Source of the DNA: Torpedo marmorata
Taxonomy: Eukaryota
Length of the DNA stretch: 64,000 nucleotides
Direction of reading: 5' to 3'
Assembly (NCBI GenBank): GCA_977017645.1
Contig: OZ360221.1
Span: forward strand, 151,156,001 to 151,220,000
Each line of letters begins with the position of its first letter. The stretch's first letter is position 1. The notes under the pieces were generated by a model. That model did no database searches. It was given only the letters and a program-made list of their open reading frames with translations, and was not told the origin of the DNA. Shown piece by piece: positions 5,891 to 58,997 of the stretch. A program made the translations under genes and the position numbers.

Positions 5891-7260
5891 AAAGGACATT
5901 CTCAGAATTTACAAATCTGCCTGGTCGAACTATCTTGATCACAATTTATGATCTCTACTAATCACTTCATTGAAATCAGGGGAGCCTTCCTCTGGGACAA
6001 CCATCAGCCAGAATCCTGCTCCTAGCCACTGGACATCTGGTCCAGGCAGGAGACTCGACTCTAATGAGACATGGGATTTAATATTGTGGCCTGACCAACC
6101 TCTTCAAGCCCAGAGTTAATGTTAGGGCCTAAGGTTTTCTTCAGAACCTTCAGCTAAGACAAAAGAAAATCTTCAAATGAAGCCTTTAAGTGAAGACAAG
6201 TGCTTGTCATTTTCCAGACATTGAAGCAAATAAGCTGCTGCCTTGACCTCTCATCCAATATCCTCACTACATGTTGCTAAATTTACTTCAGTTTCATTTC
6301 AGCTTGTCTGCTTCCTCTCCCATATACTTCATTAAACTCTGGATACTGGTGACCTTTTCTTGGTGTGAGAGGAGTTTAATGAGAAAATGGGAGATTTAGA
6401 AAGAGTAACTGAAACAAAAACAGAATTTATAAAAATTCTTCAACAAGTTTTCAGAAAGTCATGAGGTATGGGATCCACGGAGCCTTGGCTGTGTGGATTA
6501 AAAATTGGCTTGCATATGTCGAAAGTAGAGAGTAGTAGTGGATGGAAAGTGTTCTGCCTGGAGGTCAGTGACTAGTGGAGTTCCACAGGGATCTGTTCTG
6601 GGACACCTGCACTTTGAGATTTTTATAAATGACCTAGATGGAGAAGCGGAACGATGAGTCAGTAAGTTTGCGGATGATATGAAGGTTGGCGGAGTTGTGG
6701 ACAGTGCATAAGGTTGTTGTAGGTTACATAAGGATATAGACAGGTTGCAGAGTTGGGCGGAAAAATGGCAGATGCAGTTCAATCCGGATAAGTGTGAGGT
6801 GATGCATTTTGGAAGGTCAAACCAGAAGGCTGAGTACAGGGTTAATGGTCAGATGCTTAACAGTGTGTAGGGACAGAGGGACCTTGGGGTCGAAATCCAT
6901 GCATCTCTCAAGGTTGCTGCACACATTGATACGACAGTTAAGAAGGCCTATAGTATGTGGGGCTTCATTAATAGGGGGATTGAGCAAGAGTCGAGAGGTC
7001 ATGTTATAACTCTACAAATCTCTGGTGAGACCACACAGAGTATTGTGTTCAGTTCTGATCATCTCATTATAGGAAGGATGCGGAAGCTTTGGAGAGGGTG
7101 CAGAGAAGATTTACCAAGATGTTGCCTGGATTGGAAAATAAGTATTTTGAGGCAAGGTTAGCAGAGTTGGGACTTTTCTCTTTGGAACGCAGAAGGATGA
7201 GAGGAGACTTAATAGAGGTCTGCAAGATTCTGAGAGGCATAGGTAAGGAGGACAGCCAGT

Positions 7261-10200
7261 TGATGAGCCCATCAATAACTTCAAAAGACTAGAAGTTGTA
7301 TTTGAACTGAAAGGCTTTTATTAGCAAAAGAATGGAGTTACATCCATGCTGGTAATCTGTCCCGGACTGGGGGAGGAGTGGTGGCACAATTGCCTTTATT
7401 CAGGGGGTCTGTGGGATGAGCCACCGGGACAGTCAGCAGAGGGCATGTCCAGACACATCACCCAGCCACAATCTATACAAAGTGGTTTACCACATTCACC
7501 CCTCCTTTTAAAAGAGTCCCACGGGATGAAGGATGTAACAATATTTACAAAAGAAATTACAAATGAGTATATTTACAGGTCGAGTCGATCAGGCGGTCGA
7601 GTCCGCCGCTGTGATCGGCGCAGTACTTGTGGTGATGGGGCAGGCGACGGTGCCGCCTCCTGCCTATTTGGAGGTACCAGCACATCTGGCGTCAGCAAAA
7701 CCTCGTGTGTGTATGCCGGTACGGGGGTCTCGTTTGGTGTCTGTTTTGAATTGGGTGGTGTCTCCTGTGTGTCTCTAATGGTAGGTGCAGGGGTGACAGT
7801 AACCATGGAGTGTTCGGGGGCAGGCACCATTGCTCCTGTGGGCACGAAGTCCCGGATGGAGACCATGTCTTCCCGCCCATCAGGAAAAACCACGCAGGCG
7901 TACTGGGGGTTCGCATGTAGTAGTTGAACCCTCTCAACCATCGGGGCATATTTATTGCTCCTGACATGTTTCCGGAGCAACACTGGCCCTGAGGACGTCA
8001 GCCATGCTGGTAGGTCAACTTCCTGGGGAAGGAAAAGAGTCTCTCATGAGGGGTGGCATTGGTGGATGTGCATAGCAGGGAGCGGATGGAGTGGAGTGCC
8101 TCGGGAAGGATTTCTTGCCAGCGGGAGACTGGTAATCACTTAGACCTGAGGGCTAAAAGTATGGTCTTCCAGAACGTGACGTTCTCCCTCTCCACTTGTC
8201 CATTCCCCCGGGGGTTATAGCTTGTGGTCCTGCTAGTCGCGATACCCCTGGCCAGCAGGTATTGGCGTAGCTCGTCACTCATAAGTGAGGACCCTCGGTC
8301 ACTATGGATATAGCAGGGGTATCCAAACAATGTGAAGAGTTTGCGGAGGGCTTTTATGACCGAGGTGGTCGTGGTATCGGGGCAGGGAATGGCGAAAGGG
8401 AACTGCGAGTACTCATCAATGATGTTGAGAAAGTACACATTGCGGTCGGTAGAGGGGAGGGGGCCCTTAAAGTCGACGCTCAGTTGCTCAAATGGGCGGG
8501 TTGCTTTGATCAATTGTGCCTTGTCAGGTCGGTAGAAGTGCGGTTTGCACTCCGCGCAGACTTGGCAGTTCCTGGTCATCGTCCTGACCTCTTCAAGGGA
8601 GTACAGCAGGTTTCTGGCTTTCACAAAGTGGAAAAGCCGGGTGAATCCGGGGTGGCAGAGGTCGCAGTGGAGGGCATATAACTGGTCAATCTGTGCGCTG
8701 GCGCATGTCCCCCGGGATAGGGCATCGGAGGGCTCGTTGAGCTTCCCAGGCCGGTACATGATATCATAGTTGGAGGTGGAGAGTTCGATTCTCCACCTCA
8801 GGATTTTATTGTTTTTAACCTTACCCCGCTGCTGGATGCTGAACATAAATGTGACTGAGCACTGGTCAGTCAGCAGGGTAAAACTTTTGCCCGCAAGATA
8901 GTGCCTCCAGTGCCTGACAGCTTCCACTATGGCCTTGGCCTCTGTCTCCACCACTGAGTGCCGAATTTCTGGGCCTTGAAGGGTACGGGAGAAAAATGCC
9001 ACCGGTCTTCCCGCCTGGTTAAGGGTAGCAGCCAGTGCGATGTCGGACGCGTCGCTCTCTACTTGGAAGGGAGTGGACTCATCCACCGCGTGCATTGCTG
9101 CTCTGGCAATGTCCCCTTTGATGAGGTCGAAGGCCTCACGTGCCTCCGCTGAGAGGGGAAAAGTGGTGGACTTGACTAGGGGGCGGGCCTTGTCTGCATA
9201 ATTAGGGACCCATTGTGCATAGTATGAGAAGAAGCCCAAGCACCTTTTGAGAGCTCTGAGGGTGTGGGGAAGCGGTAGTTCTAGCAGGGGGCGTATGCGG
9301 TCGGGGTCAGGACTGATGACTCCGTTCTCCACAACGCACCCCAGGATAGCGAGTCGGGTGGTTCCGAACACGCACTTATCCTTGTTATAGGTGAGATTAA
9401 GTGCTTTGGCCGCCTGGAAGAACTTCCGGAGATTGTTATCATTGTCCTGCCGGTCGTTACCGCAGATAGTAATGTTGTCCAGGTATGGGAACGTGGCCTT
9501 TAATGGATACCCCATTTGTGACCCCGAAGGAGACGCGTAGGAAGTGATAGAGCCTGCCGTCCGCCTCGAAAGTGGTGTAGGGGCGGTCCTCCCGGCGGAT
9601 GGGGAGCTGATGGTACGCAGATTTGAGATCTATGGTGGAGAATAGCTTGTACTGAGCTATCTGGTTCACCATATCTGCAATGCGTGGTAGAGGGTATGCG
9701 TCAAGCTGTGTGAACCTATTGACGGTCTGACTATAATCTACCACCATCCTATGTTTCTCCCCGTTCTTGACGACGACCACCTGAACCCTCCAGGGACTTG
9801 TGCTCGCCTCAATGATCCCTTCCCCAAGCAACCGCTGCATCTCCGACTTAATGAAGGCCCTGTCCCCTGCGCTGTATCTCCTGCTTTTGGTTGCCACAGG
9901 TTTATAGTCAGGGGTCAGATTGGCAAACAGAATTGGGGGAGGGATCTTGAGGGTGGATAGGCCGCAAGTAGTGTCTGTGATGCGGCTGCGCGTGTGGTGT
10001 GGCAAAATACGTCTGCCGTGTTTGAGAAATTGATGGTTACCGACAGTGATTGGTGGGAGGGGCCCGTCATACTCCATCGTCACACTTTGAATGTGACTCT
10101 GGAAGTCGAGCCCCAGTAGAATTGGGGCACACAGTCGGGGCATGACCAATAGTGTAAAGTCCCGATATTCAGTGTCCTGCTCCACTAGCGTCGTTACACA

Positions 10201-11682
10201 ACCTCTCCGAATGTCTGTTGTGTGCGACCCGGAAGCCATGGCGACGTTTGGCTTACCGGCTGTGTCGTGAGGCCGCATCGCTGCACCGTGTCTGGGTGGA
10301 TAAAGCTCTCTGTGCTGTCCGTGTCGAACAGGCAGTTTGTCCTGTGTCCCTCCACCAGAATGTCCATCATAGACCTCGCGAGTTGGTGGGGTGCACTCTG
10401 GTCGAGTTTAACGGATGCCAAAGTTGAGTCGCTGTCTTGATCCAATGTGATGGAGTGCTGGGTGTTCCGGGATGACGGCACCCTGTGTCGGCGCGATGGC
10501 GTCGAACAAAATGGCCACTCCCATGACTCGCATGTGTTTGCCGCGGGTAAGTAAGATGGCGACGACGGAAGTGACGACACACTAGGTGGCCGCCCCCATG
10601 TCTCGCAAATGGTGGCGCCGGACGGGCAAGATGGCGACGGCAACAATGGCGACCCCCATGCCTCGCAGGTGGCGCTGCTCGATCCCGCTCGCGGTTTAGA
10701 CTTATAGACCTTGGCGAAATGTCCTTTCTTCCCGCAGCTGGAGCAGGTCGCTTCTCAGGCTGGGCAACGTTTCTGGGGATGCTTTGTGAGTCCGCAGAAG
10801 TAGCATTTCTCGGTCTCGCGGCTGACGGCAACTGTGGTCGATTCACCGGCGTGGTGTGGGGTCTGCAGTATCCAAGGAGCCGGCGGCAGATCGCCCGCCT
10901 GGATAGCATAAGAGTTCTGCAACGCGGCTTCCAGTGCATCGGCCATCTCTATCGCCGAATGGAAAGTGAGGTCAGCTTGTTCCAGCAGGCGCTGGCATAC
11001 ACCGACCTGGTCGCAGTAACGAAAGTGTCTCTTACCAGGAGCTCCGCGTGTTGTTCGGCCGTCAGTCCTTGGCAGTCGCAGGCCCGCACGAGTGTCTGTA
11101 GGGCCCGGACGAACTCCGCGCTCGACTCACCGGGCCGCTGCTGCCACGTCGCTAGCCGGTGTCACGTGTAAACAGTATTAACTGGCCGTAAATATTGTCT
11201 TTTAAGGGCATTCATTGCATCTTCGTAAGTCCGCAGGTCTCGGATCATCGAGTAGACCCATGAGCTTAACCTAGAGAGGAGGACTTTGTGTTTTGCAGCG
11301 TCTTCTTCTACCTTGATCTCCTCCAGGAATGACTCAAAGCAGGCTAGCCAGAGTTCAAAAGCGTTGCCGGCCTCTGGTGTTTGTGGATCGAGGTCCAGCT
11401 TGTCTGGTCTCAAGACATTTTCCATGCTTACAAGTTTGCTAATAAAATTGATGAGCCCATCAATAACTTCAAAAGACTAGAAGTTGTATTTGAACTGAAA
11501 GGCTTTTATTAGCAAAAGAATGGAGTTACATCCATGCTGGTAATCTGTCCCGGACTGGGGGAGGAGCGGTGGCACAATCACCTTTATTCAGGAGGTCTGT
11601 GGAAGGAGCCACCGGGACAGTCAGCAGAGGGCATGTCCAGACACATCACCCAGCCACAACCTATACATAGTGGTTTACCACA
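7261..11682 (-). mobile_element. Full-length Gypsy LTR retrotransposon A (TGTGGTAAACCAC LTR group)
   Basis: 234-bp LTRs 7261-7494 and 11449-11682 (about 8 differences), 5-bp TSD CCAGT (7256-7260 and 11683-11687), PPT AAAAGGAGGGGTGAA next to the 3' LTR. Confidence 0.97.
7573..11425 (-). pseudogene. Disrupted gag-pol of Gypsy A (Gag, CCHC, protease, RT, RNase H, integrase)
   Basis: ORF pieces MENVLRPDKL..., CYFCG...C, LFDTDS protease site, YPLP/IDLKSAYHQ/YLDN RT, ESDASD RNase H, HPG...C..C and DFKG/HSDRGS/ERE integrase; several frameshifts and a deletion in RT near 9505. Confidence 0.95.
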
Positions 11683-11955
11683 CCAGTGCCTTTTTCCCAG
11701 GGCAGGAATAGCAAACACAAGGGAACATCTCTTCAAAGAAAAGGGAGGAAAGTTTAGGGGAGACATCAGTGTTAAGTTTTTTACACAAAGCATTGTGGTT
11801 ACCTGTAATGCCTTGCCAGAAATAGTGGTAGAAGCTGAAACATTAGGGGCATTTAAGAGACTCTTAGGCAGGCACATGGATGAAAGAAAAATAGAGGGTT
11901 AGGAGGTAGGAAGGGTTTAGTTCTTCTGTTGGTAGAATATATAGGTCAGCGCAAC

Positions 11956-12215
11956 TGTGGTAAACCACTTTTAGTATGTATATAGGTATTGTGGCCTGAG
12001 GCGAGTATGACCATGACCTGTCTGTCTGTCCCGGTGACTCTTCCCCCCTTTCCCTGGAATAAAGGCCTTGAGCCATTGACTCCTCCCTCAGTTCCGGGAC
12101 ATCCAGCAGGGATCACCAGGTCAAGGTGTAGCTTAGCCCTGGCCTTGATTCTGGTATTAAAAGCCTATTAATTCCTGCACTTCTAGACTCGCGTCTGTCA
12201 TTGATAGGTACATCA
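11956..12215 (+). mobile_element. Solo LTR of the TGTGGTAAACCAC Gypsy group
   Basis: TGTGGTAAACCAC...TACATCA termini, 5-bp TSD GCAAC (11951-11955 and 12216-12220), inserted in the CR1 3' UTR. Confidence 0.93.
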
Positions 12216-13396
12216 GCAACATTGAGGGCCGAATGGTCTGTGCTGAGCTGTGATGTTCTATGTTCTCTATGTTCTAAGTTAAATTACCTACCATTTAGGA
12301 ATAATTACAAAATATAGGAATAAATAAAAGACTCTTAGTTGGCAGCAAGTGTTACGCGAGATTTAAATCATGTTCGGTGGGTTCAGAGAGAAGTGAGTCC
12401 AGACGCAGGCTAACAAAATGGATGATCTTTATTGTACATACGGGAAAATTGTAACGGGGAAGACACAAGACAACACCTGATTCTAAAACAATATAGGCAT
12501 TCACATCGGATATAGCGATCTCCGATACCAATGGCCACCTACTCTCTCTCTTTATTACACACAAGCAATAATAATTGGTAACTAACACACTCTTACAAGA
12601 CAGAGACTTTAACACGCACTCTCGGTTCCATGTACCAACGGGGTGCGGCTCAATGCTAAGTATTCCCACACAATACTATGGTCCCACTCTCAGTGTAGTG
12701 CACACCTTACCAACGACTCTTCCAGCGATGTCCACAGTTCTCGGCCTGGCGTAGAGCAGTAATCATAGTCAGGACCAAGGAGCAAAGAGAGACTGATCAG
12801 CTGCACATGGTGGGCTTTTAAAGTGCAGTAAGCTGGGGAACTGGCCCAGGTAATGTAATAAGTTAAAGGGGCCAATGGTCAGGTGTGCACTAATGGGTGT
12901 GCAGAGTCCAACCTTGATTGGCAGGTGATGCGACTTCCAACTAGGTTCCAGTTAGAGAGGTCACGTGACCCTCCACAATCCACATTCCCAACAAGTTCCA
13001 GATGAAGAGGCCACGTGACCCTTCACAATCCACTCTACATTCCACCCCTCGGAAGTCACACCACTCGCCAATCATCTACAAACTTGATCAATAACATTAT
13101 GTACAATGGTTAACAGAAAAAGAAAATAAATCTTCAACTGACAGGTTACGATACTTATACTAAATGATGTGTACACAAACCGTGCAAATCAAAATGTACA
13201 ATAAATACAGAGGTAACACAAGTGCCTTTAAAATGAGGGACAAGGCACATCAGCAGGGGAAGGTGATGTTTCTGGAAATGACAACACTCCACCAGCTCTT
13301 CCCCTGAATGAACAGGGTCGTTGTGTTCCCGATGGAGTGGTGTGCTGCGGGAACTGCTCCCCAGTGTGAGAGAGGAGGAAAATAATTGTTTTTTAG

Positions 13397-14200
13397 TCAC
13401 TGATTCACATACGTTGTCTCTCCGACTTGACTGGCATGTATGTGCACCTTTGCCACCAACATCAGGACCAGTGCCACCACCAACTGCGACAGGCAGTGCA
13501 AGGCCATCCTTCAAGTCCCATAGCCCTTCCTTGAGCAGCACTTCCCATGCATTGGCCATCCATCCGGGCGCTCCCCTGTCATTGTGAGGCACACAGCCCA
13601 GATGTCCACCGCCGTGCTGTCCCATGGGGAAGCAGGGGTCGGCCCGGCAGATGTGCATCGAGGGCATTCCGGTACTTGCCTGGGAGCGCCCCCATTTTTC
13701 TGGCTACTGTCTGGCACCAGGATGCAGTTCCGGCTCACTTTCTCTCTGTGCATGGACCAGTATCTACTGAAATGGGTGCAACATATGGCCTGCCCTGGCT
13801 CATTTAACGGACTCACATGGAGAGTCAGGACTGTGTAGTTTCCGAATTAAGAGTATTTATTAAAAAAAAGGTTCCTGAAGCACTCACTCCATGGGGAATT
13901 GTTAGGAGTGGTGTTATGGTGGGGGGGGGGGGTGGGGGCGAGAGTAGATGAATGCTGTCATTACTGAAAGGTTACATTGTGAAAGTGTTTATACAAAATG
14001 CTCCTGCTGCTGCCATTGGCTGGTGGTGATGGGTGGAAGACCGTCAGAAGCAGTGATGAGAGCGCAGCAGTCTGGAGTGGAGGTGCTGTGGGCGTCTCAA
14101 TGTTGTGGTCTTCCGTAGTGCTGAGCTTGAAGTGTAGTTGGTCTGCAGGGTGGGTGGGAATATCTCACTCTCTTTTTGAGAGTCTGTTAGTGTGTGGCAT
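13397..14200 (-). pseudogene. Env-position ORF remnant: short putative type I membrane glycoprotein
   Basis: Reconstructed by hand across stops and frameshifts: hydrophobic AALSSLLLTVF, sequons NGS/NVT/NDS/NTT/NYT, Cys-rich body (ORF 13511-13816), then after one TGA in the same frame MALHCLSQLVVALVLMLVAK...TYVNQ*. Confidence 0.4.
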
Positions 14201-15128
14201 GACAACGACATTTCTCCCGGGAATGCAACCCATCGCGTGTCTGCCGGTCCGCGTGCAATTACTTCCCCCTTTTTAGCTGGACCCTGTGGCTACCGGACTC
14301 CTCAGAGTCTTGTAGGTTAACCTCGTCTGTTTTCTGTAGGTCTGAAGTGGACAAATGTCGTGAAACCAGGGACCTCCCCCCACTCCCGTGCAGTGGGGTG
14401 CAGGTTTAACTGGTCCACCGCTTTTTGCAGCATGCTGAGCCACCCCTTCAACGTGTCGTCGGGTGTCAGCGTGCGCAAATTTTGTTTGAGGAGAGCATTC
14501 ATCCCTTCAATGAGCCTGGATGCCAATGGGTGGTAGGGGATGTGCAGCAGCCAGGCTCCACCGCCCAGTTCTGTATTTTGGTCCCCGTAAAGTGTGAGCC
14601 CTGATCAGACTGAACCTTCCACGGGACTCCATAAATGGAGGAGAGGTACTACAGTCCTTGGATAGTGTTGTCCTGGTTGGCCCCCTCGCAGGGCACTGCC
14701 CCCAGGACACCAGAGTAAGTGTCCACCATCGTCAGGAAGAAGCTCCTTTTATTTTGGCATTTGAGAGGGCCGACATAGTCTATTTGCAAGACTTGGGCAT
14801 CTCCCGTGCCGCGACATACTGTCTGTGCCCCGGTGCACTCGTCGGCCAGCCCTGTGGTTTAGTCAGCTGGCAGGTGGGACAATTATCCACCACTGTCCGT
14901 GCCTCATCATGAGTAAGAGCCACCCCTAAGTCCTCCCCACACCGTCGCGTGCTGTCAGAACCCCGGTGGCCGCACTTTCTATGCGCCCATGCTGCCAGGG
15001 CACTGGAATCTGTATCGTCGTAGTGGGTGGAGGCTGAGCAGATTTGCACTGCATGGTCCACGGCAGCGTTATGTGTGACTCTGCCGTGTCCCTATTGGCA
15101 TGGGCTTCCACAAGGTGAACCGTGAGCA

Positions 15129-15617
15129 ATTGATTTAGCCGTTTCAAAAAAATGCATTGCTATTACTTGGAAATCAGATTTAGATTTAAGTTTAGAAAGG
15201 TGGCATGCTGAACTTCATTCGTGTATACCATTAGAAAAGATTACTTATAATTTACGCAATAAGTATCTTTTTTTTTTGAAAATTTGGAGCCCATATATGA
15301 GAGTTATGGGTTTAACGATTTGAAAATCTCTAGATATCAGGTCTACTGGCGAGTTTAACCTCCATGATAGAATTAGTTTGTAGATGGTTCTCCCCTCACT
15401 ATTATTCTATCTTTTTCTTCTTTTTTTTACTATACTTCATATTTTTTTTTATTATATATTTTTTTAATTAGAATAGTGGGGATGGGGGGGTTTGGGACGG
15501 GAGGGTGGGTACGGGGGGAGAAAATATATATCACATGTATTTTGAAAGCTATACATTTTAATCTATGTATTTTGTGATTTAAAAATTTAAATAAAATAAT
15601 TTTAAAAAATTTTTAAA
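15129..15617 (+). mobile_element. 5'-truncated L1 inserted in ERV pol
   Basis: 17-bp TSD AAGGTGAACCGTGAGCA (15112-15128 and 15618-15634), ORF2 C-terminus KKCIAITWKS...CIPLEKITY like that of 56048-58912, A-rich tail. Confidence 0.92.
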
Positions 15618-17125
15618 AAGGTGAACCGTGAGCACCCTCTACCCAGCCTGCTCCCAGACATACTTACTTCCAGTGCTGCTGGCCCCAAAGCGGGCGGCTG
15701 TGAATCTGCCACCTCGTGTCGTGCCAGCGGGCCATCCACAACGCCATCCCATTCACCACTGCCCATGAGTCCGTACAGATACGGAGTGGACCCATTGTTT
15801 CTTTAATCGTGAGAGCTACCGCAGCCAGCTCCGTGAGCTGACTGGATCCTCCCCTCCCTTGCTGAGTCAGGGTCTTACCAGTGGCGGGGTGTAGAGCCGT
15901 TGCTTTCCATAGCTGCCTTCCATTCTTCCAATGACTCGAGTCGTCTGTAAAACATACCTGCTGTTGTTTATCGAGGGAGTCGTACGGCTGACCCCAGGAC
16001 ATGGGAGAGAGATGTACATCAGGGACCTTGGGAAGCGGACCCTCACTCTCGGGGAGGGACATGACTTGCCTACTGACCCCCTCTGCCCCATCCTCTGCCC
16101 GGTCCACGATGTACCATCTCCATTTTACAATGGAGGACTGCTGGGCGCGGCCCTCTTTGTGGGTGTCATCAGTGGACTCGACCCACCGCATGATGGGTAG
16201 GTAAGGCTGGAGTATTATGGTCTCAGCAGCCGGTTGGTGCTCCGTGGTGAGGAGTGCCAGATAGCACACCAGGAGCTGGCGTTCAAAAGGGCTGTAAAGG
16301 GAGGCGGGCTCGGTGAAGGTTTTGGTCCAGAAGCCGAGTGGAACTCTGCGGCCATTAACTTTCTGCCAGAGACTCCACTCGGCCATGGTGTTGGTGGCGG
16401 AAACTTGAAGTTCAAAGGGGACCCCTGTCTGTCGGGAGGCTAGCGGCAGTACCTGCTCAATAGCCTGCTTAGCCGTGTCAAACGCCATCTGCTGCTCGGG
16501 ACCCCAGTGGAACCTGACTTTTTTCCTGGAGACTGCATAAAGCGGGCGAACAGCATGATGAGGTGGGGAACATGCTGCCACCAGTAGCCTAAAAGGCCGA
16601 CGAAGCTCTGGATCTCGGCTTTATTGGTGGGCACCACAGTGTTTAAAATTTTATTCTTGGCCACCTCCAGAATGTTCCTCTTCCCTGAGTGGCATTGAAT
16701 ACCCAGGAAGAGGACCGTGTGGCTGGGGCCCTGGACCTTCTCTGGGTTGACTGCCCAGCCATGGGCACGGAGTCCTGAGGTCAAAGACTCTAGTGCTTGC
16801 GCTATGATCTCTTCGGCGAGGCCCTGGAGGAATATATCATCGATGTAATGGGTGAAATCGACGTCAGGGGGAAGGGCAATATTTTTTGCATCGCAGGCTA
16901 TTAATCCGTGGCAGAATGTGGGGCTGTGTATGTATCCCTAGGGCGGCTGACAGAAGGTGTATTGAGTGCTCCCCCAGGTAAAAGCAAACTGGTGCTGTGA
17001 AGAAGGACTCAAGGGGATGGAAAAGAACATATTGTTGAGGTCCACCATGGCATACCAACGCTTGGTGTCCATGCCCCCGATGTCCTCCGCGAAGGTGACC
17101 ACATCAGGAATAGCAGCAGTGAGAG

Positions 17126-20100
17126 TGTGGTAAACCACTGTTATGTGTATTGTGGGCTGGGGATTAGTATGGGCATGTCCTGCTGTCTGTCCCGGTGGCT
17201 CCTCCCCTTCCCTGGCTGTCCTGGTAACCCCTCCCCCTTCCTCCCCCGAATAAAGGCTCTTGTGCCACTGCTCCACCCTCAGTCCGGGATAGATCAGCAG
17301 GTCAACTGTAGCTTCCTTTATAGATAATAAAAGCCTACTGTTCGTATTCTACTCATCGCCTCTTGAATATTATTGATAGGCCTATCAATTTTATTATCTA
17401 TAAAAATCTGATGGAGAGCGCCCTGAGACCGGACAAGTTGGACATCGATCCACTAGCTCCAGACGCCGGTAATGCTTTCGAACACTGGCTGCGTTGTTTC
17501 GAGTCTTTCTTAAGGACGATCAAGGCGGAAAGCGAGGACGAGAAACAGATGGTCCTCGTGTCCAGGGTAAGCCCTCGGTTATATTCAACGATCCGGGACT
17601 GTAAAACCTACGTGGTGGCTATGGATGCCCTAAAAAGAATATATATAACGCCAGTTAACGCGGTCTACGCAAGGCACCGGCTATCAACGCAGCATCAGCG
17701 GCCCAGGGAGTCGATCATCGAGTTTGTCAGGGACATACAGTCGCTGGTGCGGGCGTGCGACTGCAAAGCGCTGACGGCAGAGGAACATGCGGAACTGCTG
17801 GGGAGAGACACCTTTGTCATGGGGATCAGGTCGGTATACGTGCGCCAGCGGCTGCAGGAGCACGCCGACCTGGACCTCCGTACCGCGGTTGCAATGGCCC
17901 ACATGCTGGAGGCCGCGCTGCGGAACTCTGACGCCATGCAGGCGCGCGACCTCCAGCCGGCCACGTGGACAGCCCCATCCCCCAACCCTGCCAGCGAGCT
18001 GACCGCCGCCGCCGTCTGCCGCGACCCGATTACCGCCGCCGCAATCCGCGAACTCACCGCCGCAGCCGTTAACCGCGAGCCCAAGAAATGCTATTTCTGC
18101 GGGCTCGATAAGCACCCACGCAAACGCTGCCCGGCCCGAGACGCGACCTGCTCCAGCTGCGGCAAGAAAGGCCACTATGCAAAGGCCTGCCGCTCTAAGC
18201 CACGAGCGGGTCCGAGCAGCACCACGTGCGAGATATGGGAGCGGCCATCTTACCTTCCGTCACTTCCGGCGTCGTATTTGCCCATAGTTGCGACCTCGTG
18301 CGAGGAGTGGAGGCGGCCATCTTTGACACTGGCACTTCCGGCGCCGCCATCTTACAGCACCACATCGGCACTTCCAGCACTTCCGGTGCCGCTATCTTGC
18401 AGCTCCAGCAGCCGTGACACGTGCGACCCACGGGGGCGGCCATCTTCTTCAGCGCCGGATCAAGACGACTACATCCCGACTCTAGCATCCGTCACCCTCG
18501 ACCAGAGTGTGCCCCACCAGCTGTCCCGATCCATGATGGACATCCTGGTGGAGGGGCACAAGACCACCTGCCTGTTCGATACAGGCAGCACGGAGAGCTT
18601 CATACACCCGGACACAGTGCAGCACTGTGGCCTAACTACCGTACCGGTAAGCCAGAGGTTGGCCATGGCGTCCGGGTCGCATACAACGGACATCCAGGGG
18701 GGTTGTGTGGCGAACATTGTAGTACAGGGAACAGAATATCGGCACTTCTCGTTATTTGTTATGCCTCGTTTGTGTGCGCCGGTATTACTGGGACTTGACT
18801 TCCAGAGTCACTTACGAAGTGTCACGATGCGCTACGACGGCCCCCACCCTGCAATCACTGTAGCGAACCACCAGTTCCTGGACAACACGCCTCAGACTAC
18901 CTGTGGTCTCTCCACACTTAAGGTCTCACCCCCGTCGCTATTCGCCAACCTGACCCCTGACTGTAAGCCCGTGGCAACCAAGAGCAGGCGATACAGTGCA
19001 GGGGACAGAGCGTTTATCAAGGCGGAGGTGAAGCGACTATTACAGGAGGGGATCATCGAGCCAAGTAATAGCCCCTGGAGAGCCCAGGTAGTCGTGGTAA
19101 AAGGGGCCAAGAGCAGGATGGTGGTGGACTATAGTCAGACTATTAACCGATTCACGCAACTGGACGCATACCCACTGCCACGAATAGCGGATATGGTGAA
19201 TCAAATAGCCCAGTATAGGCTACTTTCGACTATAGATCTGAAGTCAGCATACGACCAGCTCCCTATCCGTCGGGAGGACCGCACGTACACCGCTTTCGAG
19301 GCAGACGGCAGGCTGTTCCATTACCTGCGCGTTCCGTTCGGAGTCACAAATGGGGTGTCCGTATTCCAGCGGGAGATGGACAGGATAGTCAATCAGTATA
19401 AACTTAAAGCCACCTTCCCATACCTGGACGGCATCACCATATGTGGTCATGATCGCCAGGATCATGATAACAACCTTCGGAGGTTCCTGCAGGCGGCCAA
19501 GGCGCTAAACCTCACGTATAACAAAGATAAATGCGTGTTCGGGACCACCCGACTCGCCATTCTGGGGTGCGTCGTCGAGAACGGGGTTATTGGACCCAAC
19601 CCCGACCGCATGCGGCCCCTGCTGGAACTTCCGCTTCCCCTCACCCCCAAAGCCCTTAAACGATGCCTCGGGTTCTTCTCGTACTATGCGCAGTGGGTCC
19701 CTAATTATGCCGATAAAGCCCGACCCCTTGTCAAATCCACCACGTTTCCCCTCGCATCGGAGGCACGTAAGGCTTTTGACCTTATAAAAGGGGACATTGC
19801 ACGAGCAACAATGCACGCGGTGGATGAATCGACATCTTACCAGGTGGAGAGTGACGCATCGGACTTCGCGCTGGCTGCTACCCTCAACCAGGCGGGAAGA
19901 CCGGTGGCGTTCTTCTCACGGCCCCTCCAAGGCCCCGAAATTCGGCAATCCGCGGTTGAGAAAGAGGCCCAGGCCATAGTGGAGGCTATTAGACACTGGA
20001 GGCACTATCTCGCCGGTAAGCATTTTACCCTGCTGACAGATCAACGCTCTGTTGCGTGTATGTTTAACACCCAGCAGCAGGGTAAGATCAAAAACGATAA

Positions 20101-21694
20101 GATCATGAGGTGGAGAATAGAGCTCTCCACCTACAATAACGATATCCTGTACCGGCCCGGGAAGCTCAATGAGCCCTCCGATGCTCTATCCCGGGGATCG
20201 TGCGCCAGCGCGCAGATCGACCGATTATACTCCCTACACTGTGACCTCTGCCACCCAGGAGTTACCAGGCTGTTCCACTTCGTGAAAGCCAGAAACCTGC
20301 CCTACTCCCTGGAAGAGGTCAGGACAATGACCAGCATTTGTCGGGTCTGCGCGGAGTGCAAACCACAGTTCTACCGCCCCGACAAGGCACAGCTGGTCAA
20401 AGCCACCCGCCCTTTTGAATGTCTCAGCATCGACTTCAAGGGCCCCCTTCCCTCCACGGACCGCAATGTGTATTTCCTCAATATCATTGACGAATACTCG
20501 CGGTTCCCCTTTGCCATTCCCTGCCCCGATACTTCGGCTACCTCTGCCATTAAAGCTCTTCGCCAGGTATTTACTCTATTTGGCTTCCCTAGCTATATAC
20601 ATAGCGACCGGGGATCAGTTTTTATGAGTGAGGAGCTGCGACAGTACCTGCAGGCCCGGGGCATCGCCACTAGTAGGACCACGGGGTACAACCCACGGGG
20701 TAACGAACAAGTGGAAAGGGAGAACGCCACTGTCTGGAAGGCCGCGCTCTTGGCTCTCAAGTCCAAGGGACTGCCGGTCTCCCGCTGGCAAGAGGTTCTC
20801 CCCGAAGCCCTCCACTCTATCCGGTCCCTGCTGTGCACGTCCACAAATTCAACCCCCCACGAACGACTTTTCTCCTTCCCCAGGAAGTCGACCACCGGAA
20901 CCACCCTACCTGCCTGGCTGACGTCCCCGGGACCTGTGCTGCTCCGCAAGCACCTTCGGAGCAGCAAATACGAACCTATGGTCCACAGGGTGCAGTTAGC
21001 CCACGCTAACCCTCAATATGCCTACGTGGTCTTCCCTGATGGGCGGGAAGACACAGTGTCAATTCGCGACCTGGCGCCCGCAGGAGCGCCGGGAGAAGCC
21101 CTCGACATGGAAGACCAATTGTCGCAGCCCCTCCCCATCCCCCCCCAGCACGTCAGCTCCAGCACCCTCGCCAGGGCCGAATGCGCCACAAGAAGCCAGG
21201 TAGGAGGCAACTCTGCAGACAACCCTGACATCTCCCCCATCACCACAACCCGCCCCGTCACCGCGGATACTACGCAGGTCGCAGCGGCGGATCAGACCGC
21301 CTGATCGGCTCGACCTGTAAATGTGAATGTATATATCTGTTTATATCTTCAGTTTTTCTTGCATTTGTATCTTGTAAAATAATCACAGTGGCCACGTCAC
21401 CCCGTTGGATTCTTTTAAAAAGGAGGGGTGAATGTGGTAAACCACTGTTATGTGTATTGTGGGCTGGGGATTAGTGTGGGCATGTCCTGCTGTCTGTCCC
21501 AGTGGCTCCTCCCCTTCCCTGGCTGTCCCGGTAACCCCTCCCCCTTCCTCCCCCGAATAAAGGCCCTTGTGCCACTGCTCCGCCCTCAGTCTGGGATAGA
21601 TCAGCAGGTCAACTGTAGCTTCCTTAATAGATAATAAAAGCCTACTGTTCGTATTCTACTCATCGCCTCTTGAGTATTATTGATAGGCCTATCA
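17126..21694 (+). mobile_element. Full-length Gypsy LTR retrotransposon B (TGTGGTAAACCAC group) inserted in the ERV RT
   Basis: 262-bp LTRs 17126-17387 and 21433-21694 (about 8 differences), TSD GAGAG, PPT AAAAAGGAGGGGTGAA; the ERV RT frame joins across the insertion (RKLNKVS..LTAAIPD). Confidence 0.97.
17411..21304 (+). CDS. Single-frame Gag-Pol polyprotein of Gypsy B (about 1297 aa)
   Basis: ATG 17411 (MESALRPDKL, homologous to the element A start); two Zn knuckles, LFDTGS protease, RT, RNase H, HHCC/DDE integrase. The native end RRSQRRIRPPDRLDL* (21320) is in another frame, implying a frameshift in the tail. Confidence 0.93.
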   Translation: MESALRPDKLDIDPLAPDAGNAFEHWLRCFESFLRTIKAESEDEKQMVLVSRVSPRLYSTIRDCKTYVVAMDALKRIYITPVNAVYARHRLSTQHQRPRESIIEFVRDIQSLVRACDCKALTAEEHAELLGRDTFVMGIRSVYVRQRLQEHADLDLRTAVAMAHMLEAALRNSDAMQARDLQPATWTAPSPNPASELTAAAVCRDPITAAAIRELTAAAVNREPKKCYFCGLDKHPRKRCPARDATCSSCGKKGHYAKACRSKPRAGPSSTTCEIWERPSYLPSLPASYLPIVATSCEEWRRPSLTLALPAPPSYSTTSALPALPVPLSCSSSSRDTCDPRGRPSSSAPDQDDYIPTLASVTLDQSVPHQLSRSMMDILVEGHKTTCLFDTGSTESFIHPDTVQHCGLTTVPVSQRLAMASGSHTTDIQGGCVANIVVQGTEYRHFSLFVMPRLCAPVLLGLDFQSHLRSVTMRYDGPHPAITVANHQFLDNTPQTTCGLSTLKVSPPSLFANLTPDCKPVATKSRRYSAGDRAFIKAEVKRLLQEGIIEPSNSPWRAQVVVVKGAKSRMVVDYSQTINRFTQLDAYPLPRIADMVNQIAQYRLLSTIDLKSAYDQLPIRREDRTYTAFEADGRLFHYLRVPFGVTNGVSVFQREMDRIVNQYKLKATFPYLDGITICGHDRQDHDNNLRRFLQAAKALNLTYNKDKCVFGTTRLAILGCVVENGVIGPNPDRMRPLLELPLPLTPKALKRCLGFFSYYAQWVPNYADKARPLVKSTTFPLASEARKAFDLIKGDIARATMHAVDESTSYQVESDASDFALAATLNQAGRPVAFFSRPLQGPEIRQSAVEKEAQAIVEAIRHWRHYLAGKHFTLLTDQRSVACMFNTQQQGKIKNDKIMRWRIELSTYNNDILYRPGKLNEPSDALSRGSCASAQIDRLYSLHCDLCHPGVTRLFHFVKARNLPYSLEEVRTMTSICRVCAECKPQFYRPDKAQLVKATRPFECLSIDFKGPLPSTDRNVYFLNIIDEYSRFPFAIPCPDTSATSAIKALRQVFTLFGFPSYIHSDRGSVFMSEELRQYLQARGIATSRTTGYNPRGNEQVERENATVWKAALLALKSKGLPVSRWQEVLPEALHSIRSLLCTSTNSTPHERLFSFPRKSTTGTTLPAWLTSPGPVLLRKHLRSSKYEPMVHRVQLAHANPQYAYVVFPDGREDTVSIRDLAPAGAPGEALDMEDQLSQPLPIPPQHVSSSTLARAECATRSQVGGNSADNPDISPITTTRPVTADTTQVAAADQTA

Positions 21695-22299
21695 GAGAGA
21701 GAAACTTTATTTAATTTCCTATAGTCTATTGTCATCCGCCACGTGCCATTCTTCTTACGGGCGGGCAAGATTGGAATGTTGTAGGGGGACAGAGCGGGTC
21801 TAATGACTCCCTCACGGAGTAATGCATCAATCGCTTCCGCAATCTCTTCAGTGCCTCCTGGCACCTGATACTGTCAGGTGCAGACCACCTCGTGGGGGGG
21901 GGGGGGGGCAGGGCGGAATGATGACCGGAGTCCATTTGGCGGCTCCGAACCCGATGGTTGCCCGGGCAACCCCGAAGGTGAATTTCCCCTTATCGGTGCA
22001 CAGCGACTGCCCCTTAAGTACATTCATGCCAAGAATACACTCGGGAGAGACTGTCACCAGGAAAGGGATGGGACAGGGAGTCTCGCCGCCGATGGAGAGG
22101 CAAAGGGTGACTTCTCTGGCAGCGAGAATTGAGCCACCTAGCCCCTCTATAGAAACCTAGGTCCCCTCCACCCATCGGGGTTCCCGTGGATAATAATATG
22201 CTCGGCCCCGGTATCAACCAGCGCCATCCAGTGCTGGGTATTCCCCTTTTCCCAGTGTCCGGCTACTGGGATAAATGGCCTCGGGTCACCCGGGCGGGA

Positions 22300-23932
22300 T
22301 AGGACCACTAAATGGATTCACCAGGGGCCCTGGTCTCCATCCTATGGAACGGGGCGCAGGTGTGTTTGGTGTGACTTTGAATTGGCCATTTCCTGTTGCA
22401 CCAGGGAGATAATCTCTGCCTTGAAGGCAGCATGGGGCCACCTCTGGTGGGGGAGGAGCAGAAGGCTGAGTAGTCTAGGGTAAGGTGGACGGGGCAATGG
22501 GTGCTCTGTCCTGCTTCCACCCACAGTGCTCCAGCCACAGAGCGAACATGGCGGAGGTGGAGATACCATAGATGCGGGCATGATCCACGCCAGCACATGG
22601 CAGGGCAAAGTACATTTCCCTGTGGGTTAATGGGAAAGTGATCTTACTGATCTTAGAGTCAGCGGGGACCCCCTGTGCGGGTGCTCCCCACTCCATATAC
22701 TCTCGCCCTTCCTGAAGGGTGATGGCTTCCCGGACCGTCTTACCGGTCGCCGGTCCCATCAAGAGCAAGACCACCCGCTTTATTTTTTTTAAAATTTTAT
22801 TTAAAAACCACCTCCTTGAGATCAGGGTGGGCGGTGGTTACTAGGTGGCCCGCCAAGGTGGCAGTTACCCTGGCGTTCACGTGCAGGGATGGGACGGGGA
22901 GGTTGCGCCCACGTTGCCCCCGTAGATGCTGTTAATGAGGGCCAATTACCTGATCACCTTCGTGCCCTCACTGACCGTGTGCCACTACGGCCGGCCATTC
23001 AGGTCCTATTCCAGGAGCGTGGGGAACCTGGACCGCACCGCAGCCACCACCCGATCCCACAGGGTGGTGCCCTCATCAATCCCTTCGATTTGTGAGGTGT
23101 TGTTCACTGTCTGCTGCGCTGACAGGCTGCCCAGGGAACTGGCCTCGAGATGGGAGAGGCGGATATGGGGAGCCTTCTCATCTCACGGCTGGAGCAGCCA
23201 TGCGGCCAAGTGCTTGATTGGCTGCTGGCGATATCTATCTCCCAGCCCGGTTAACTCTTGGTGTAGTCCAGGGTCTCTATGACCTTGTAACGGCCACTCG
23301 ACTGTCCACTCGCCCTCTCCCCATAACCAGCTGCCTCCCCTTGGGGAGGACAAGCGGGGTGGGGGATCCTCGTGGCGTGTCAGGGACCGCATGGCCACTG
23401 GCTGGGCTTGCAAGTTCTCGGGTATGCAGGGGGAAGGATGCATGTAATGGGACTCAGCCTCCTCATAGTCATCATCGTCCATCCACACGTCCCCATCCCC
23501 CAAACACATGTCGCCCTCTCCTCCATGCATGATAATGGCCCTTTTCTTAATGGGATCGACCTGCCAGCCAGATCGGCGGGCTGCCTGCAGCTGCCGCACT
23601 TTGACCAATCGGCAGGCAGCCTCAGTATATTTGGCCTCAAGGCTGCTGATGCGCGCCCGGGCTGTGTCCAGTGCCTCCTGCAGTGAGCCACGGGGGTGCT
23701 TCAGGGACTCAAGCTGCTCATTTTTCTGAGCAGCCTGTATTGTTAAATTCTTAGTGATATCCCACTGGCGCCTCAGCAAGGATATCAGCAACCATAGGGC
23801 TCCCCCACGACTCCCCCTGCTTTCGGGAAATCCTGATTCCTCCAAGAGGGAGGCCACATGGTGCCCAAACATTTCCCCGCGGTGTCCAGCTTGTCGGCCC
23901 AGTCGACCAGTATCGCGTGGCCCGCCTGCCAA
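22300..23932 (-). pseudogene. ERV gag, class III/Fv1-like, disrupted
   Basis: Coiled-coil N-terminus, GDGDVW motif and ELTGLGDRYRQQP...AWLL capsid motif typical of ERV-L/S Gag; no CCHC knuckle seen. Confidence 0.8.
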
Positions 23933-23985
23933 GCTGCTAGCTTGCTGAACCCCTGACTATGTTCTGTCCACCCGGGGATCCTAAT

Positions 23986-32543: not shown

Positions 32544-34351
32544 TGATGCGCCTGTAGCCGACTGCTTCGAAGAAACACACACATGCAGTGTGGAAGGTTA
32601 AGCTCTCTGCTTTATTGAGGCTGGAAATGCTTCTTTTATACAGTTGGAGTTCCCGCCGTTTGGTTGATTGGTTGACATCAGCCGCAAGAATAACAATAAC
32701 GGGGGAACGTTCTTGCATATGAATACCCTTCTTCCCCAGCCTGGTATTGATCTGTTAGCTGGGCAGCTTGGCCAGCACCATTTTAGGGCTGCTGGTCTTG
32801 TACTGCTCCAGCTTTCAACCGCGCCGGTTTGCTATGCTAAGGGTTAGTTACAGTGTGTTATGCCGCTGTTTATTACCGCGCGTGCCGGCTCGATATCCGC
32901 GGTGGCGGGCCGCCACATGACCCCCACCCCAGAACCAGCGCTACAGTTCATAGTGTCCGTGGATGCAGTCCCAAATGTCTTTGGTGGTCTGCCTCTGCGC
33001 CGAGGTGCTGGCATCTCCACGGGTTGTGTCGGGTCCGTGTGTGCCGGGTTGAGCCTGTCTGCGGTGAAGACCTCTGGTTTGCCACCGATGTCCAGTTCGA
33101 AGGTGGCCCATTGTTCCGGACGACTCGGAAGGGGCCTTCGTAGGGCTTCTGTAGCGGTGGACGGTGTGGCCCTCTGCGTGCGAACACGTACTCACAGTCT
33201 TGGAGTTCTTTAGGGATGTTGAACTTGCCTTGCCCGTGTCTGGAGGGTAGGATCGGAGCCAGGTTACCGACCTTTTCCCGCAGCCTGTCCAGGAAGGTGG
33301 TTGTATCCTCCTGTTGACCTCCGGCCGGTGGGACGAAATTCCCGGGGACCATGAGTGGAGCTCCGTAGACGAGCTTGGCGGAGGATGTGTGGAGGTCTTC
33401 CTTCGGGGCTGTATGAATCCCCAGCAGTGCCCATGTCAGTTTGTCAACCCAGTTGGGGCCCTTGAGTCTGGTCATAAGGGCGGCCTTGAGGTGCCTGTGG
33501 AAGTGCTCAACCAGTCCGTTAGACTGCAGGTGGTATGATGTTGTGTGGTGTAGCTGAGCGCCCCACAGGTTGGCAACGTCGGTCCACAGGCTGGAGGTAA
33601 ATTGTGCACCTCTGTCGGAGGTTATGTGGCGTGGTAGCCTGAACCTTGCTACCCAGGACGAGACGAGTGCCTTGGCGCAGGACCTGGTGGATGTGTCGGC
33701 CAGGGGGATTGCTTCTGGCCACCGGGTGAAACGGTCGACCACCGTGAACAGGTAGCGGAAACCCTGTGAGAGTGGTAAGGGCCCCACTATGTCCACGTGA
33801 ATGTGGTCAAACCTTCACTCCGTTAGTTCGAAAGGCTGCGGGGGGACCTTGGAGTGCCGCTGTACCTTGGCTGTTTGGCACTGTGTGCATGTCTTGGCCC
33901 ACCCGCTGACTTGTTTCCACAATCCATGCCACGTGTACTTGCTGGCCACCAACCGGACCGTGGACCTGATTGATGGACGTGCCAGCCCGTGGATGGAGTA
34001 GAAAACTCGTCGCCTCCACGCCGTTTTAGGGCTGCTGATCTTGTACTGCTCCAGCTTTCAACCGCGCCGGTTCGCTATGCTAAGGGTCACGTTTACTACC
34101 GCGTGCTGCCACACGCCATCAATTACTTCAAAAGACTAGAAGTTATATAGAAATTGATAGGCTTTTATTAACAACAGAATGGAGGCGTCCATGATGGTCG
34201 CCTGTCCTGGACTGAGGAGGGAGCTGTGGCACAGTCGCCTTTATTCAGGGGTCTGTGGGAGGAGCCACAGGCACAGTCAGCAAGGGGCGTGTCCAGACGA
34301 ACTATAACAAGTACTAACACAGCCACAACATATATACAGTGGTTTACCACA
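32544..34351 (-). mobile_element. Solo LTR of the TGTGGTAAACCAC group, split by the 32553-34113 insertion
   Basis: TGATGCGCC (32544-32552) plus 34118-34351 ending GTGGTTTACCACA; TSD GTACC (32539-32543 and 34352-34356); clearly similar to the element A LTR. Confidence 0.9.
32553..34113 (-). mobile_element. Internally deleted CsRn1-like Gypsy (integrase, 3' LTR and 5' LTR stub)
   Basis: 4-bp TSD CGCC; 3' LTR 32553-32917; PPT GGGGTGGGGGTCA; integrase ORF 32948-33796 (DIVGPLP, DRFTRWPEA, TSDRGAQF, PYEGPF); LTR stub about 34024-34113. Confidence 0.9.
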
Positions 34352-35584: not shown

Positions 35585-35750
35585 TGATGAATATACGTGG
35601 AAATGGATGGAGGTCAAAGAAGACGCCTATCTCTCTCACCTCACCCTCACATACTTACTATTACAACATTCACTTCACCAGTTTGCAGGTTCCACATACT
35701 TTCAGACATCTAGCTGTGGCAGGCAAATTACTCAGACTCATTAGAGCACA

Positions 35751-38700: not shown

Positions 38701-40057
38701 GCAACGAAGGAACTTATGGCAGCCAAGTTCATGTGGCATGGGTTGTGCAAACAGGTCGGCAACTGGGCCAGAGCTTGCATCCCCTGTCAAACCTCCAAGA
38801 TTCAGAGACACATCATGCCGCTGCAGACGTTCATCCTGACACACCGGCGTTTCGACCACATCCACGTCGTCATCGTTGGACCGCTCCCCCCACCCAGAAG
38901 TGTCACCCACCTCTTCACCATCGTTGACAGATTCACAAGGTGGCTGGAGGCCGTTCCCGCTCTCGGATACCTCCACTGCGACCTGTGCACGTGCCCTCAT
39001 CGCCCACTGGATCGCTCTCTTTGGCGTGCCGGCGGACATCTCCTCCGACAGAAGTGCGCAGTTCACCTCCGAGCTGTGGTCAGCAATGGCACGGCTGCTT
39101 GGCACTAAACTGCACCACACAACGGCCTACCACCCGCAATCAAATGGCATAATGGAACATTTGCACCGGCACATGAAGGCATCCCTCAAAGCACGGCTCA
39201 CGGGCCCAAACTGGATGGACGAATTGCCGTAGGTCATGCTAGGATACGCACTGCCCCCAAGGAGACCTGGCAACTTCCTCGGCCGAGCTGGTGCACGGTG
39301 CCCTGCTTACGGTCCCAAGGACTTCATCCCGACTGCGCATGCACATCAAGAAATGCCCACGACCGTGCTGACGCACCTCCGTGAGGAGGTGGACACGCTT
39401 TCTCCAGTCCCAACATCCCGACACGGTCTCACAGCCACGTACGTCCCACCCGACCTCAAGGACTGCCAGTACATTTTCCTTCGCCGAGATTCCCACCGTA
39501 CACCTCTGCAAAAGCCTTACAAGGGACCCTTCAGAGTACTGCAAAATGACGCTACGGCTTTCATCATTGACATGGGTGGCAGACACGAGACGGTCTCCAT
39601 GGACCGTCTTAAGCCGGCAAACTTGGACATTGACCAACCAGTGCAGGTGGCACAACCCCACCGCAGAGGGCGACCACTCTCACGACCAAACCCGCCCTCA
39701 ACTCAACCATCTGCAACCCTGAACACGGGAGACACATGCACAAGATCAGGCCGCCTCACTCGACAGCCTAACTGTCTCCAATACTCTGGTTCTGGGGGGG
39801 GTCATGTGGCGGTCGAGCCACTTAGATCTCAAACCGTCATTCGGCGGGGTTGGGCACTCACGAGAGCTCAAGCACTCGCGGGAGCTAGAGCACTGGCTCT
39901 TATCTGAGAGAGCAGCTGACACGACGCACGGGACCACAGCGCGTCTTCTTGTCTTTTGCGGCCGGCAAGTTAAAGCGTCCCTTGTCCATTGACGGTTTTG
40001 TTGAGCTGTAATGTTAACCATTAAACTCAGTGTTTAGACAAAATGCGAACGACTTCA
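35751..40057 (+). mobile_element. Full-length CsRn1-like Gypsy LTR retrotransposon
   Basis: LTRs 35751-35982 and 39805-40057, 4-bp TSD CACA, PBS TGGTGACCCCGA (tRNA-Trp) 35984-35995, G-rich PPT. Confidence 0.95.
36003..39800 (+). pseudogene. Disrupted gag/pol of the CsRn1-like element
   Basis: LKLPTFW Gag start, CYYH...C..PC knuckle, FLVDTG protease, YLDD RT, TVDASG RNase H, HGLAHP...C..C/DRFTRW/SDR integrase; several stops and frameshifts. Confidence 0.93.
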
Positions 40058-46924: not shown

Positions 46925-47074
46925 NNNNNNNNNNNNNNNNNNNNNNNNNNNNNNNNNNNNNNNNNNNNNNNNNNNNNNNNNNNNNNNNNNNNNNNNNNNN
47001 NNNNNNNNNNNNNNNNNNNNNNNNNNNNNNNNNNNNNNNNNNNNNNNNNNNNNNNNNNNNNNNNNNNNNNNNNN
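46925..47074. other. Assembly gap (N run)
   Basis: 150 N. Confidence 1.
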
Positions 47075-54300: not shown

Positions 54301-54412
54301 GTGGGGTTAATTGTTGTGAAATTATATGTTTAATTGTATGTAATAAATATAAATTTCAATTTTACCCCTTTTGCTTTGCGGCTTCTGTCATTGCTGGTTT
54401 GAATTTGTAACA
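48359..54412 (+). mobile_element. Gmr1-like Gypsy LTR retrotransposon (PR-IN-RT-RH order), RT core deleted
   Basis: About 945-bp LTRs 48359-49306 and 53469-54412, TSD GTAA, PBS TGGGGGCTCGTCCGGGAT (tRNA-Pro) 49311-49328, PPT; integrase lies upstream of RNase H. Confidence 0.95.
49439..53340 (+). pseudogene. Disrupted gag-pol of the Gmr1-like element
   Basis: SCAN-like Gag (AYELVPEAYRQKFR), CHYC knuckle, LRYTGA (mutated protease), H...GHLG/C..C/DCVGPLP/SDQG integrase, FLGMIGYYRKF, VDSSD...NVIADCLSR RNase H. Confidence 0.92.
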
Positions 54413-54483
54413 GTAACAAAGAGTATATGATAGAAGGGAATTTTCTAGTATTTCCTTTCCTAATAAGAGTTTCCACTTTACTA

Positions 54484-58912: not shown

Positions 58913-58997
58913 ATAGTTGAGGAGGAAATGTATTTACGACAGAGTAAGAGGGAAACGCGGGTGGATTTGATTAACAGGGAACAGTTACTATTTGATT

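Follow-up and report, generated by a model that had tools for sequence, protein, structure and literature searches.

A candidate self-priming route in a Ty3/gypsy lineage whose primer-binding site is complementary to its own LTR

Element A and its surroundings

What primes minus-strand DNA synthesis in an LTR retrotransposon whose primer-binding site (PBS) carries no TGG and is complementary to a segment of its own LTR? The question is raised by element A, a 4.4-kb Ty3/gypsy retrotransposon without a chromodomain that lies on the minus strand of the window, the 64,000-nucleotide stretch of Torpedo marmorata contig OZ360221.1 analysed here, and is bordered by the 5-bp target-site duplication (TSD) ACTGG (Table 1). 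The initial annotation had described a PBS position 1 nt past the LTR that lacks TGG, and a 13-nt complementarity between this position and the LTR. Both were read directly in the sequence, and the complement is exact (11447-11435 against 11516-11504). The arm in the LTR reads AATAAAA at its end and overlaps an AATAAA poly(A) signal, a feature absent from that annotation. From base composition, the chance expectation of such a 13-mer in the element's own LTR is 4e-6. The fold of 11420-11560 includes the duplex (z -2.75), and equal stability was reached in none of 200 shuffles; the corresponding value for the leader of element B is z -2.11. Most copies of family A pair over 14 bp, and the copy in the window is one pair short. 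Two family A copies (L250 and L251) have the arm of the 3' LTR exactly deleted between short direct repeats.

Element B belongs to the same lineage and shares the layout of element A: a one-base spacer, 55 nt from the arm to the LTR end, and an ATG (11425 in element A) 23 nt past the LTR. Its duplex is 16 bp long with another core. A single frame of 1326 aa in element B encodes protease, RT, RNase H and integrase, again without a chromodomain; its coding DNA is 73% identical to that of element A, in which the frame is broken. First-look searches of the 6.2-Gb host genome returned 4287 candidates for A and 5193 for B, figures that are not copy numbers.

Table 1 Features of the window discussed in the text (positions are those of the window)
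Feature	Position	Strand	Remarks
Element A 5' LTR	11449..11682	-	234 bp, TG...CA ends
Element A 3' LTR	7261..7494	-	234 bp; 96.6% identity to the 5' LTR
PBS position, element A	11435..11447	-	TTTTATTAGCAAA; T-rich, without TGG
Arm in element A LTR, PBS complement	11504..11516	-	TTTGCTAATAAAA, exact complement of TTTTATTAGCAAA; contains AATAAA
Spacer A between LTR end and PBS	11448	-	one base; from the sequence
gag-PR-RT-RH-IN coding region, element A	7573..11425	-	several broken frames; no chromodomain
Polypurine tract (PPT) upstream of 3' LTR	7495..7509	-	AAAAGGAGGGGTGAA; from the sequence
TATA-like AATAAAGG	11581..11588	-	32 nt above the putative start; common to the host's families; putative function
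Initiator-like CCAGTC	11553..11558	-	A at 11556 is the putative transcription start and primer 5' end; site of run-on stops
GCCT, 5' strand of short second helix directly after arm	11500..11503	-	partner GGGC at 11458-11455; weak alone
Element B, same lineage as A	17126..21694	+	LTR 17126-17387; TSD GAGAG; one open frame
Element B sites	initiator A 17281; arm 17317-17332; PBS 17389-17404; ATG 17411	+	from the sequence
Family E solo LTR	11956..12215	+	TSD GCAAC; full copies elsewhere pair CTGGTATTAAAA to TTTTAATACCAG
Family D LTR, 3' end missing	34116..34351	-	full copies pair TGTTGTTAATAAAA with TTTTATTAACAACA
Element C, unrelated Ty3/gypsy control	35749-40057	+	PBS start TGGTGACCCCGA matches the 3' end of host tRNA-Trp (L336)

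Element A displays the TG...CA LTRs, PPT, 5-bp TSD and PR-RT-RH-IN domain order of Ty3/gypsy elements, with Ty3 Gag-Pol as the best solved relative (E 1e-59). Relatives were identified among named proteins of rays, sharks, a sea cucumber, an anemone, a damselfly and nematodes, with RT-RH identities of 55-83%; identity to chromodomain elements is 27-32%. Neither Chromo nor SH3_Tf2-1 domains were matched in polyprotein P0001 or in six relatives. A quick RT-RH tree of 47 rows, built without Tf1, sushi, Mag, Cigr-1 and MolGy references, grouped 26 lineage rows together on a single long branch (SH-aLRT 100) that excluded eight chromodomain proteins, among them fish and frog sequences. The lineage motifs found no match in the published supplements (searched in part) and full text on metazoan Ty3/gypsy clades, and the searched parts of PMC6238403 and PMC8556966, which list such clades, make no mention of PBS or self-priming. 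A group of chromodomain Ty3/gypsy polyproteins (P0026 and its relatives P0141-P0257) has a SET domain match between RNase H and integrase.

Several further repeats were observed in the window. An LTR element at 48359-54412 (+) encodes a SCAN domain, has integrase before RT (Gmr1-like) and LTRs of ~950 bp, and carries the PBS TGGGGGCTCGTCCGGG, presumably a tRNA-Pro site. Fragments at 15664-16620 (-) and 23183-23956 (-) contain a connection domain followed by a retrovirus-type RNase H (PF00075), as well as a possible gag-like frame; element B may have inserted in a decayed endogenous retrovirus. A near-perfect palindrome of 49 bp lies at 44257-44305, and an AT-rich block at 45900-64000 holds several LINE copies with endonuclease and RT frames. 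A search of 7200-21800 against Rfam returned no match.

Pairing across the lineage and candidate primers

The pairing was examined in metagenome and MAG loci collected with RT motifs as the sole criterion. Of 87 such loci, 35 had no gag start and five had too little upstream DNA, and 47 were tested. A perfect inverted repeat beyond dinucleotide shuffles was present in 42 of the 47, with at least 11 bp in 38, and in 35 of the 42 significant loci a single base separated CA from the start of the downstream arm. The five misses comprised a duplex outside the search window (L151), a duplex with one mismatch and one G-U pair (L135), and three loci apparently without an intact 5' LTR (L122, L144 and L162). 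The expectation that other family members would share the pairing was thus borne out. A census anchored on ATG and CA, in which G-U was weighted like Watson-Crick pairs, covered 160 of 237 loci and found pairing perfect over 11 bp in 100 of 112 own-genome loci and 35 of 48 others. All 13 arm/PBS pairs that recurred in at least two loci were purely Watson-Crick. No related loci were found in the viral contigs searched. Members of the lineage were also observed inside bacterial MAG contigs (L171-L177, GTDB), most likely as host contamination.

The arm-to-PBS loop ranged from 21 to 87 nt outside the host genome, so the 55-nt distance is not conserved, and the 23-nt distance to the ATG is not conserved either. 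The equal 55-nt and 23-nt spacings to which the initial annotation had drawn attention do hold between elements A and B, because these two are close kin.

The arms and PBSs were then compared in an alignment of 29 representatives, selected for having the stem. Pairing was found in 98.4% of cells, and 100 cells held two-sided changes, a count reached in none of 500 shuffles; in slid controls only 28-47% of cells paired. These results indicated that the two strands covary across family members, as had been proposed from elements A and B. Each PBS fits its own arm, and a full PBS/arm fit between families occurred in 4 of 812 tests. Near-identical subfamilies are separated by single two-sided swaps (arms GTAGTT, GTAGCT and GTAACT). 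G-U pairs occupied 2 of 473 cells of the main duplex in a hand count over 43 loci, compared to 23 of 126 in a second helix. This second helix, of 3-10 bp directly past the arm, was found in 29 of 29 representatives, yet reached p <0.05 in only six, in a search that allowed G-U, and is weak alone.

A host tRNA, half-tRNA or other small RNA might nevertheless act as the primer, the LTR complement being incidental. Half-tRNA priming exists in some Ty1/copia lineages, according to the sections covered of PMC6317226, and the tRNA set used for comparison was incomplete, with 33 genes of seven isotypes. The best match to the PBS in that set was 7 nt. An incomplete genome-wide scan for a pattern combining the arm with a T-loop gave 36 matches, mostly LTR copies, and none of the 32 checked was a tRNA. 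The absence of a matching host tRNA fragment therefore stands within these incomplete scans; the PBS of control element C (TGGTGACCCCGA) does match host tRNA-Trp. A host-RNA primer would moreover end in AAA rather than CCA, and it would have to serve more than eight different PBS sequences in one genome, each of which fits its own LTR, with full matches between families as rare as noted above. We consider such a primer extremely unlikely.

Rearranged insertions and the proposed primer

The best reading, which we consider highly probable, is Tf1-like self-priming by a primer of 50-70 nt that ends at the poly(A) signal. Transcription would start at the initiator A (11556), ~53 nt upstream of the arm end, and the arm, at ~+41 to +53 of the RNA, would pair with the PBS; the same duplex would hide the 5' AAUAAA poly(A) signal. 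An activity assumed to be the element's own RNase H would cleave the RNA immediately past AAUAAAA, no more than a few bases from the arm 3' end and near 11504/11503. The front fragment would prime minus-strand DNA through the spacer and U5, and strand transfer would proceed via the ~20 nt of R left between the cut and the poly(A) site. A search for poly(A) sites yielded three places, in two of which an A run begins ~20 nt past the hexamer; these are too few to rely on. The retained primer would then be copied by plus-strand synthesis, so that the PBS is rewritten from the arm, which would explain the two-sided changes. This reading is carried by the duplex, its fixed position one base past the LTR, the covariation, and junction products that hold the arm and antisense U5 in one strand.

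Plus-strand copying past the PBS into a retained primer is expected to leave U5-PBS-antisense junctions, and the Torpedo marmorata genome, the only one in which footprints were sought, was therefore queried with a pattern that joins the end of U5 and the PBS to the complement of the bases upstream of the arm. Four junction searches gave 22, 43, 29 and 101 matches, and the reversed-pattern controls gave 0, 0, 0 and 1. Examination covered every match of searches one to three and 64 of the 101 that the fourth returned. The unexamined matches were repeats of the first search, one that was unlisted, or cores first taken for another repeat, and the examined examples of these cores proved to be members. 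The 158 loci were reduced to 147 events, of which 83 ran in antisense as far as the first base of the LTR, 40 stopped inside the LTR and 24 were short or due to chance; U5 and PBS thus continued into antisense LTR upstream of the arm in 123 of the 147. Read on the opposite strand, the same events show the arm, T and antisense U5, as expected of a primer joined to minus-strand DNA. All are aberrant products, filtered by their ability to integrate.

L444, L461, L474, L477, L436, L427, L391 and L409 are solo-LTR-like inserts of ~260 bp with TSDs, in the order U3-R-arm, T, antisense U5, sense U5. In L344, an inverted LTR segment comes after the PBS; the sequence then resumes at the PBS end and goes on through a normal leader and gag.

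The positions at which run-ons stop were scored. Among the 40 that stop inside the LTR, 11 end at -2 to +3 of the initiator A, where 1.5 were expected (p 2e-7) under a uniform null that, like the null for the U5 stops below, ignores microhomology and uses windows drawn after the data had been seen, though both sites were predicted. With one duplicated event merged the count is 11 of 39. Stops at or below the initiator numbered 25 of 40 versus 8.8 expected. The stop site is the A of a (C/T)CAGT initiator 32 nt downstream of the TATA-like AATAAAGG, and the stop tracks the initiator across families in which it is located 52-53 or 72-73 nt above the arm end. The stop at the initiator appears to mark the 5' end of an RNA template.

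The U5 copies were scored in 124 events: 39 extended over the whole sense LTR, seven had too little U5 to be placed, and 78 were partial. Fourteen of the 78 partial copies end at -5 to +2 of the first base past the arm. When related events were merged and four jumps at a shared AAAAG were dropped, the set was reduced to 70, of which 10 end in this interval compared to 2.5 expected (p 2e-4), a modest peak. Overall, 35 ends fell within 50 nt below the arm end, eight within 50 nt above it, and one near the initiator. The U5 stops would be consistent with cleavage of the template at the 3' border of the arm, at a bond that is ambiguous within the A run; helix pausing might imitate the peak.

In an alternative on which the junctions also bear, synthesis is primed by the second copy of the arm, located in the 3' R of the RNA genome, or by nascent plus-strand DNA that terminates at the arm, so that the tail primes on the head. 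The arm is present at both RNA ends, all of U3 is included in 83 of the 123 run-ons, and at least five run-ons cross U3 and the PPT into internal sequence. Fold-back of plus-strand DNA accounts for the 83 full run-ons without an RNA primer. Transfer of a primer copy to the 3' R would, however, explain the long run-ons as well. Priming from the 3' copy does not predict the initiator stops (11 of 40). It would also leave the 5' arm uncut, so that U5 copies would be expected to reach the RNA start; one of 70 does so, compared to 10 that terminate at the arm end. We regard priming from the 3' copy as unlikely.

A further alternative is that the duplex merely masks the 5' poly(A) signal, that some other primer is used, and that switching of templates at a short inverted repeat produced the junctions. 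Inverted repeats promote such switching, and a canonical hexamer (AATAAA or ATTAAA) lies in the arm of 25 of the 33 representatives that were correctly located. The other eight pair without one, so signal masking is not universal. Masking needs neither a helix that starts one base past the LTR nor the near-absence of G-U pairs (2 of 473), and there is no other primer site, because the PBS position itself is the arm's partner. The structure of the inserts points the same way. TG...CA ends and a 5-bp duplication were found in 23 of the 43 inserts with both ends in view, which indicates that these were rearranged before integration; a duplication was not detected in the remaining 20. Chromosomal switches would not yield such integrase-type ends and duplications, nor stops at the initiator. 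Masking as the sole role of the duplex therefore appears very unlikely, and we return to self-priming.

Copying of the retained primer would leave its mark on the PBS flank. Seventeen of the 24 short events are ordinary leaders whose PBS flank has come to agree with the sequence upstream of the arm. In one family, for which 2147 ordinary copies were compared, 12 of 12 double changes beside the PBS (two sites) gave the predicted AA. On a tree that combined 11 changed with 11 unchanged copies, the double changes required at least three origins. Chromosomal quasi-palindrome repair could be an alternative source of the overwritten flank. Templated copying from the arm side probably produces much of the covariation. 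The initial annotation had taken the compensatory change as a sign of a selected RNA duplex; the pairing is indeed not due to chance and covaries throughout the lineage, but PBS-side letters are overwritten from the arm side, so that compensatory changes do not require selection to have acted on two separate mutations.

One copy counts against self-priming as the explanation: L105 has the same arm variant in both LTRs and an unmatched PBS. The 3' LTRs of 11 mismatched copies were fetched, and none of the eight that could be assessed had one arm variant in both LTRs. The other three were left out (two with deleted 3' arms, one without a 3' LTR). This comparison is uninformative on mechanism.

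Two other lines were considered. A Tf1-like start beside the arm, suggested by an A-N-T-Y motif, was dropped since the run-on stops indicate an upstream initiator in the host genome. The motif lies 15-18 nt before the arm end in 21 of 29 representatives versus 1-8 of 28 in other windows, this window having been chosen after looking, and may represent another start site or belong to a cleavage or 3'-end signal. Contigs L106, L138 and L166, which start at the arm, were set aside, as assembly breaks explain them.

Implications and comparison with known systems

To our knowledge, fission-yeast Tf1 is the sole element in which self-priming has been demonstrated; for its chromovirus relatives and a small number of plant lineages it is predicted. 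In Repbase, some Gypsy families of animals are reportedly described as self-primed. The literature searched, whose scope excluded subscription journals and Repbase Reports, held no account of the element A lineage as self-primed. This separate lineage, abundant in the host genome, appears to be self-primed in another geometry, one that is linked to the poly(A) signal. With moderate confidence, we propose for this pan-animal, non-chromovirus Ty3/gypsy lineage that self-priming arose separately from that of Tf1 and that the poly(A) signal was converted to the primer 3' end: the 5' signal would be silenced by the duplex, cleavage past AAUAAA would release a capped primer of 50-70 nt, the PBS would be rewritten continually, and both start and cut would be mappable in genome sequence from integrated accidents.

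Self-primed elements of this kind would evade control by tRNA fragments and be missed by PBS-based annotation. The footprint approach, in which rearranged insertions serve as fossils of reverse transcription, is applicable to any high-copy family and yields exact, testable coordinates. The lineage further bears on the question whether tRNA priming is ancestral or was replaced repeatedly.

Parts of the proposed geometry have counterparts elsewhere. The poly(A) hairpin of HIV-1 hides the 5' AAUAAA by base pairing, is local, and coexists with a tRNA PBS. The 5' AAUAAA of element A would likewise be base-paired, but the partner strand is the PBS itself. With regard to the origin of priming, PMC3601003 calls tRNA priming a late event.

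Skipper, a Dictyostelium Ty3/gypsy element, resembles element A in that a pyrimidine-rich stretch replaces the TGG PBS, but, according to the parts covered of PMC5006619, it has a chromodomain and no LTR complement, whereas the complement in element A is perfect and covarying. Self-priming was predicted for the plant elements Tcn1 (Ty3/gypsy) and TAR (Ty1/copia) from an LTR complement of at least 10 bp located 0-5 bp past the LTR (PMC6317226, in part), and element A has such a complement. Tcn1 and TAR belong to other lineages and hosts, and the portion consulted of that source mentions neither poly(A)-signal overlap nor genomic footprints for them.

The closest parallel is the Tf1/sushi group. 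In Tf1, the PBS pairs with the first 11 bases, which RNase H separates from base 12 (PMC7175516, with PMC4600332 as a further source on Tf1 self-priming); the three-duplex structure and the chromodomain criterion of Tf1/sushi are given in PMC10085805, all three sources being used in part. Within those limits, element A shares with Tf1, Tf2, Tj1 and the wider Tf1/sushi group the lack of a tRNA PBS, a PBS complementary to a 5'-LTR segment, and possibly flanking helices. A cut releases the primer in Tf1, and a similar cut is suggested for element A. The differences are substantial. The element A lineage has no chromodomain or SH3_Tf2-1 and occupies a separate RT-RH branch. The Tf1 primer consists of the first 11 nt of the transcript, whereas that of the element A lineage would be 52-73 nt long, with the arm 36-60 nt inside the transcript, and would end at the poly(A) hexamer. 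The run-on stops would likewise put the RNA 5' end 52-73 nt above the arm end, unlike the fully paired first bases of Tf1. Because it lacks a chromodomain, falls on a separate RT branch and would use a long primer, the element A lineage is not a member of the Tf1/sushi group.
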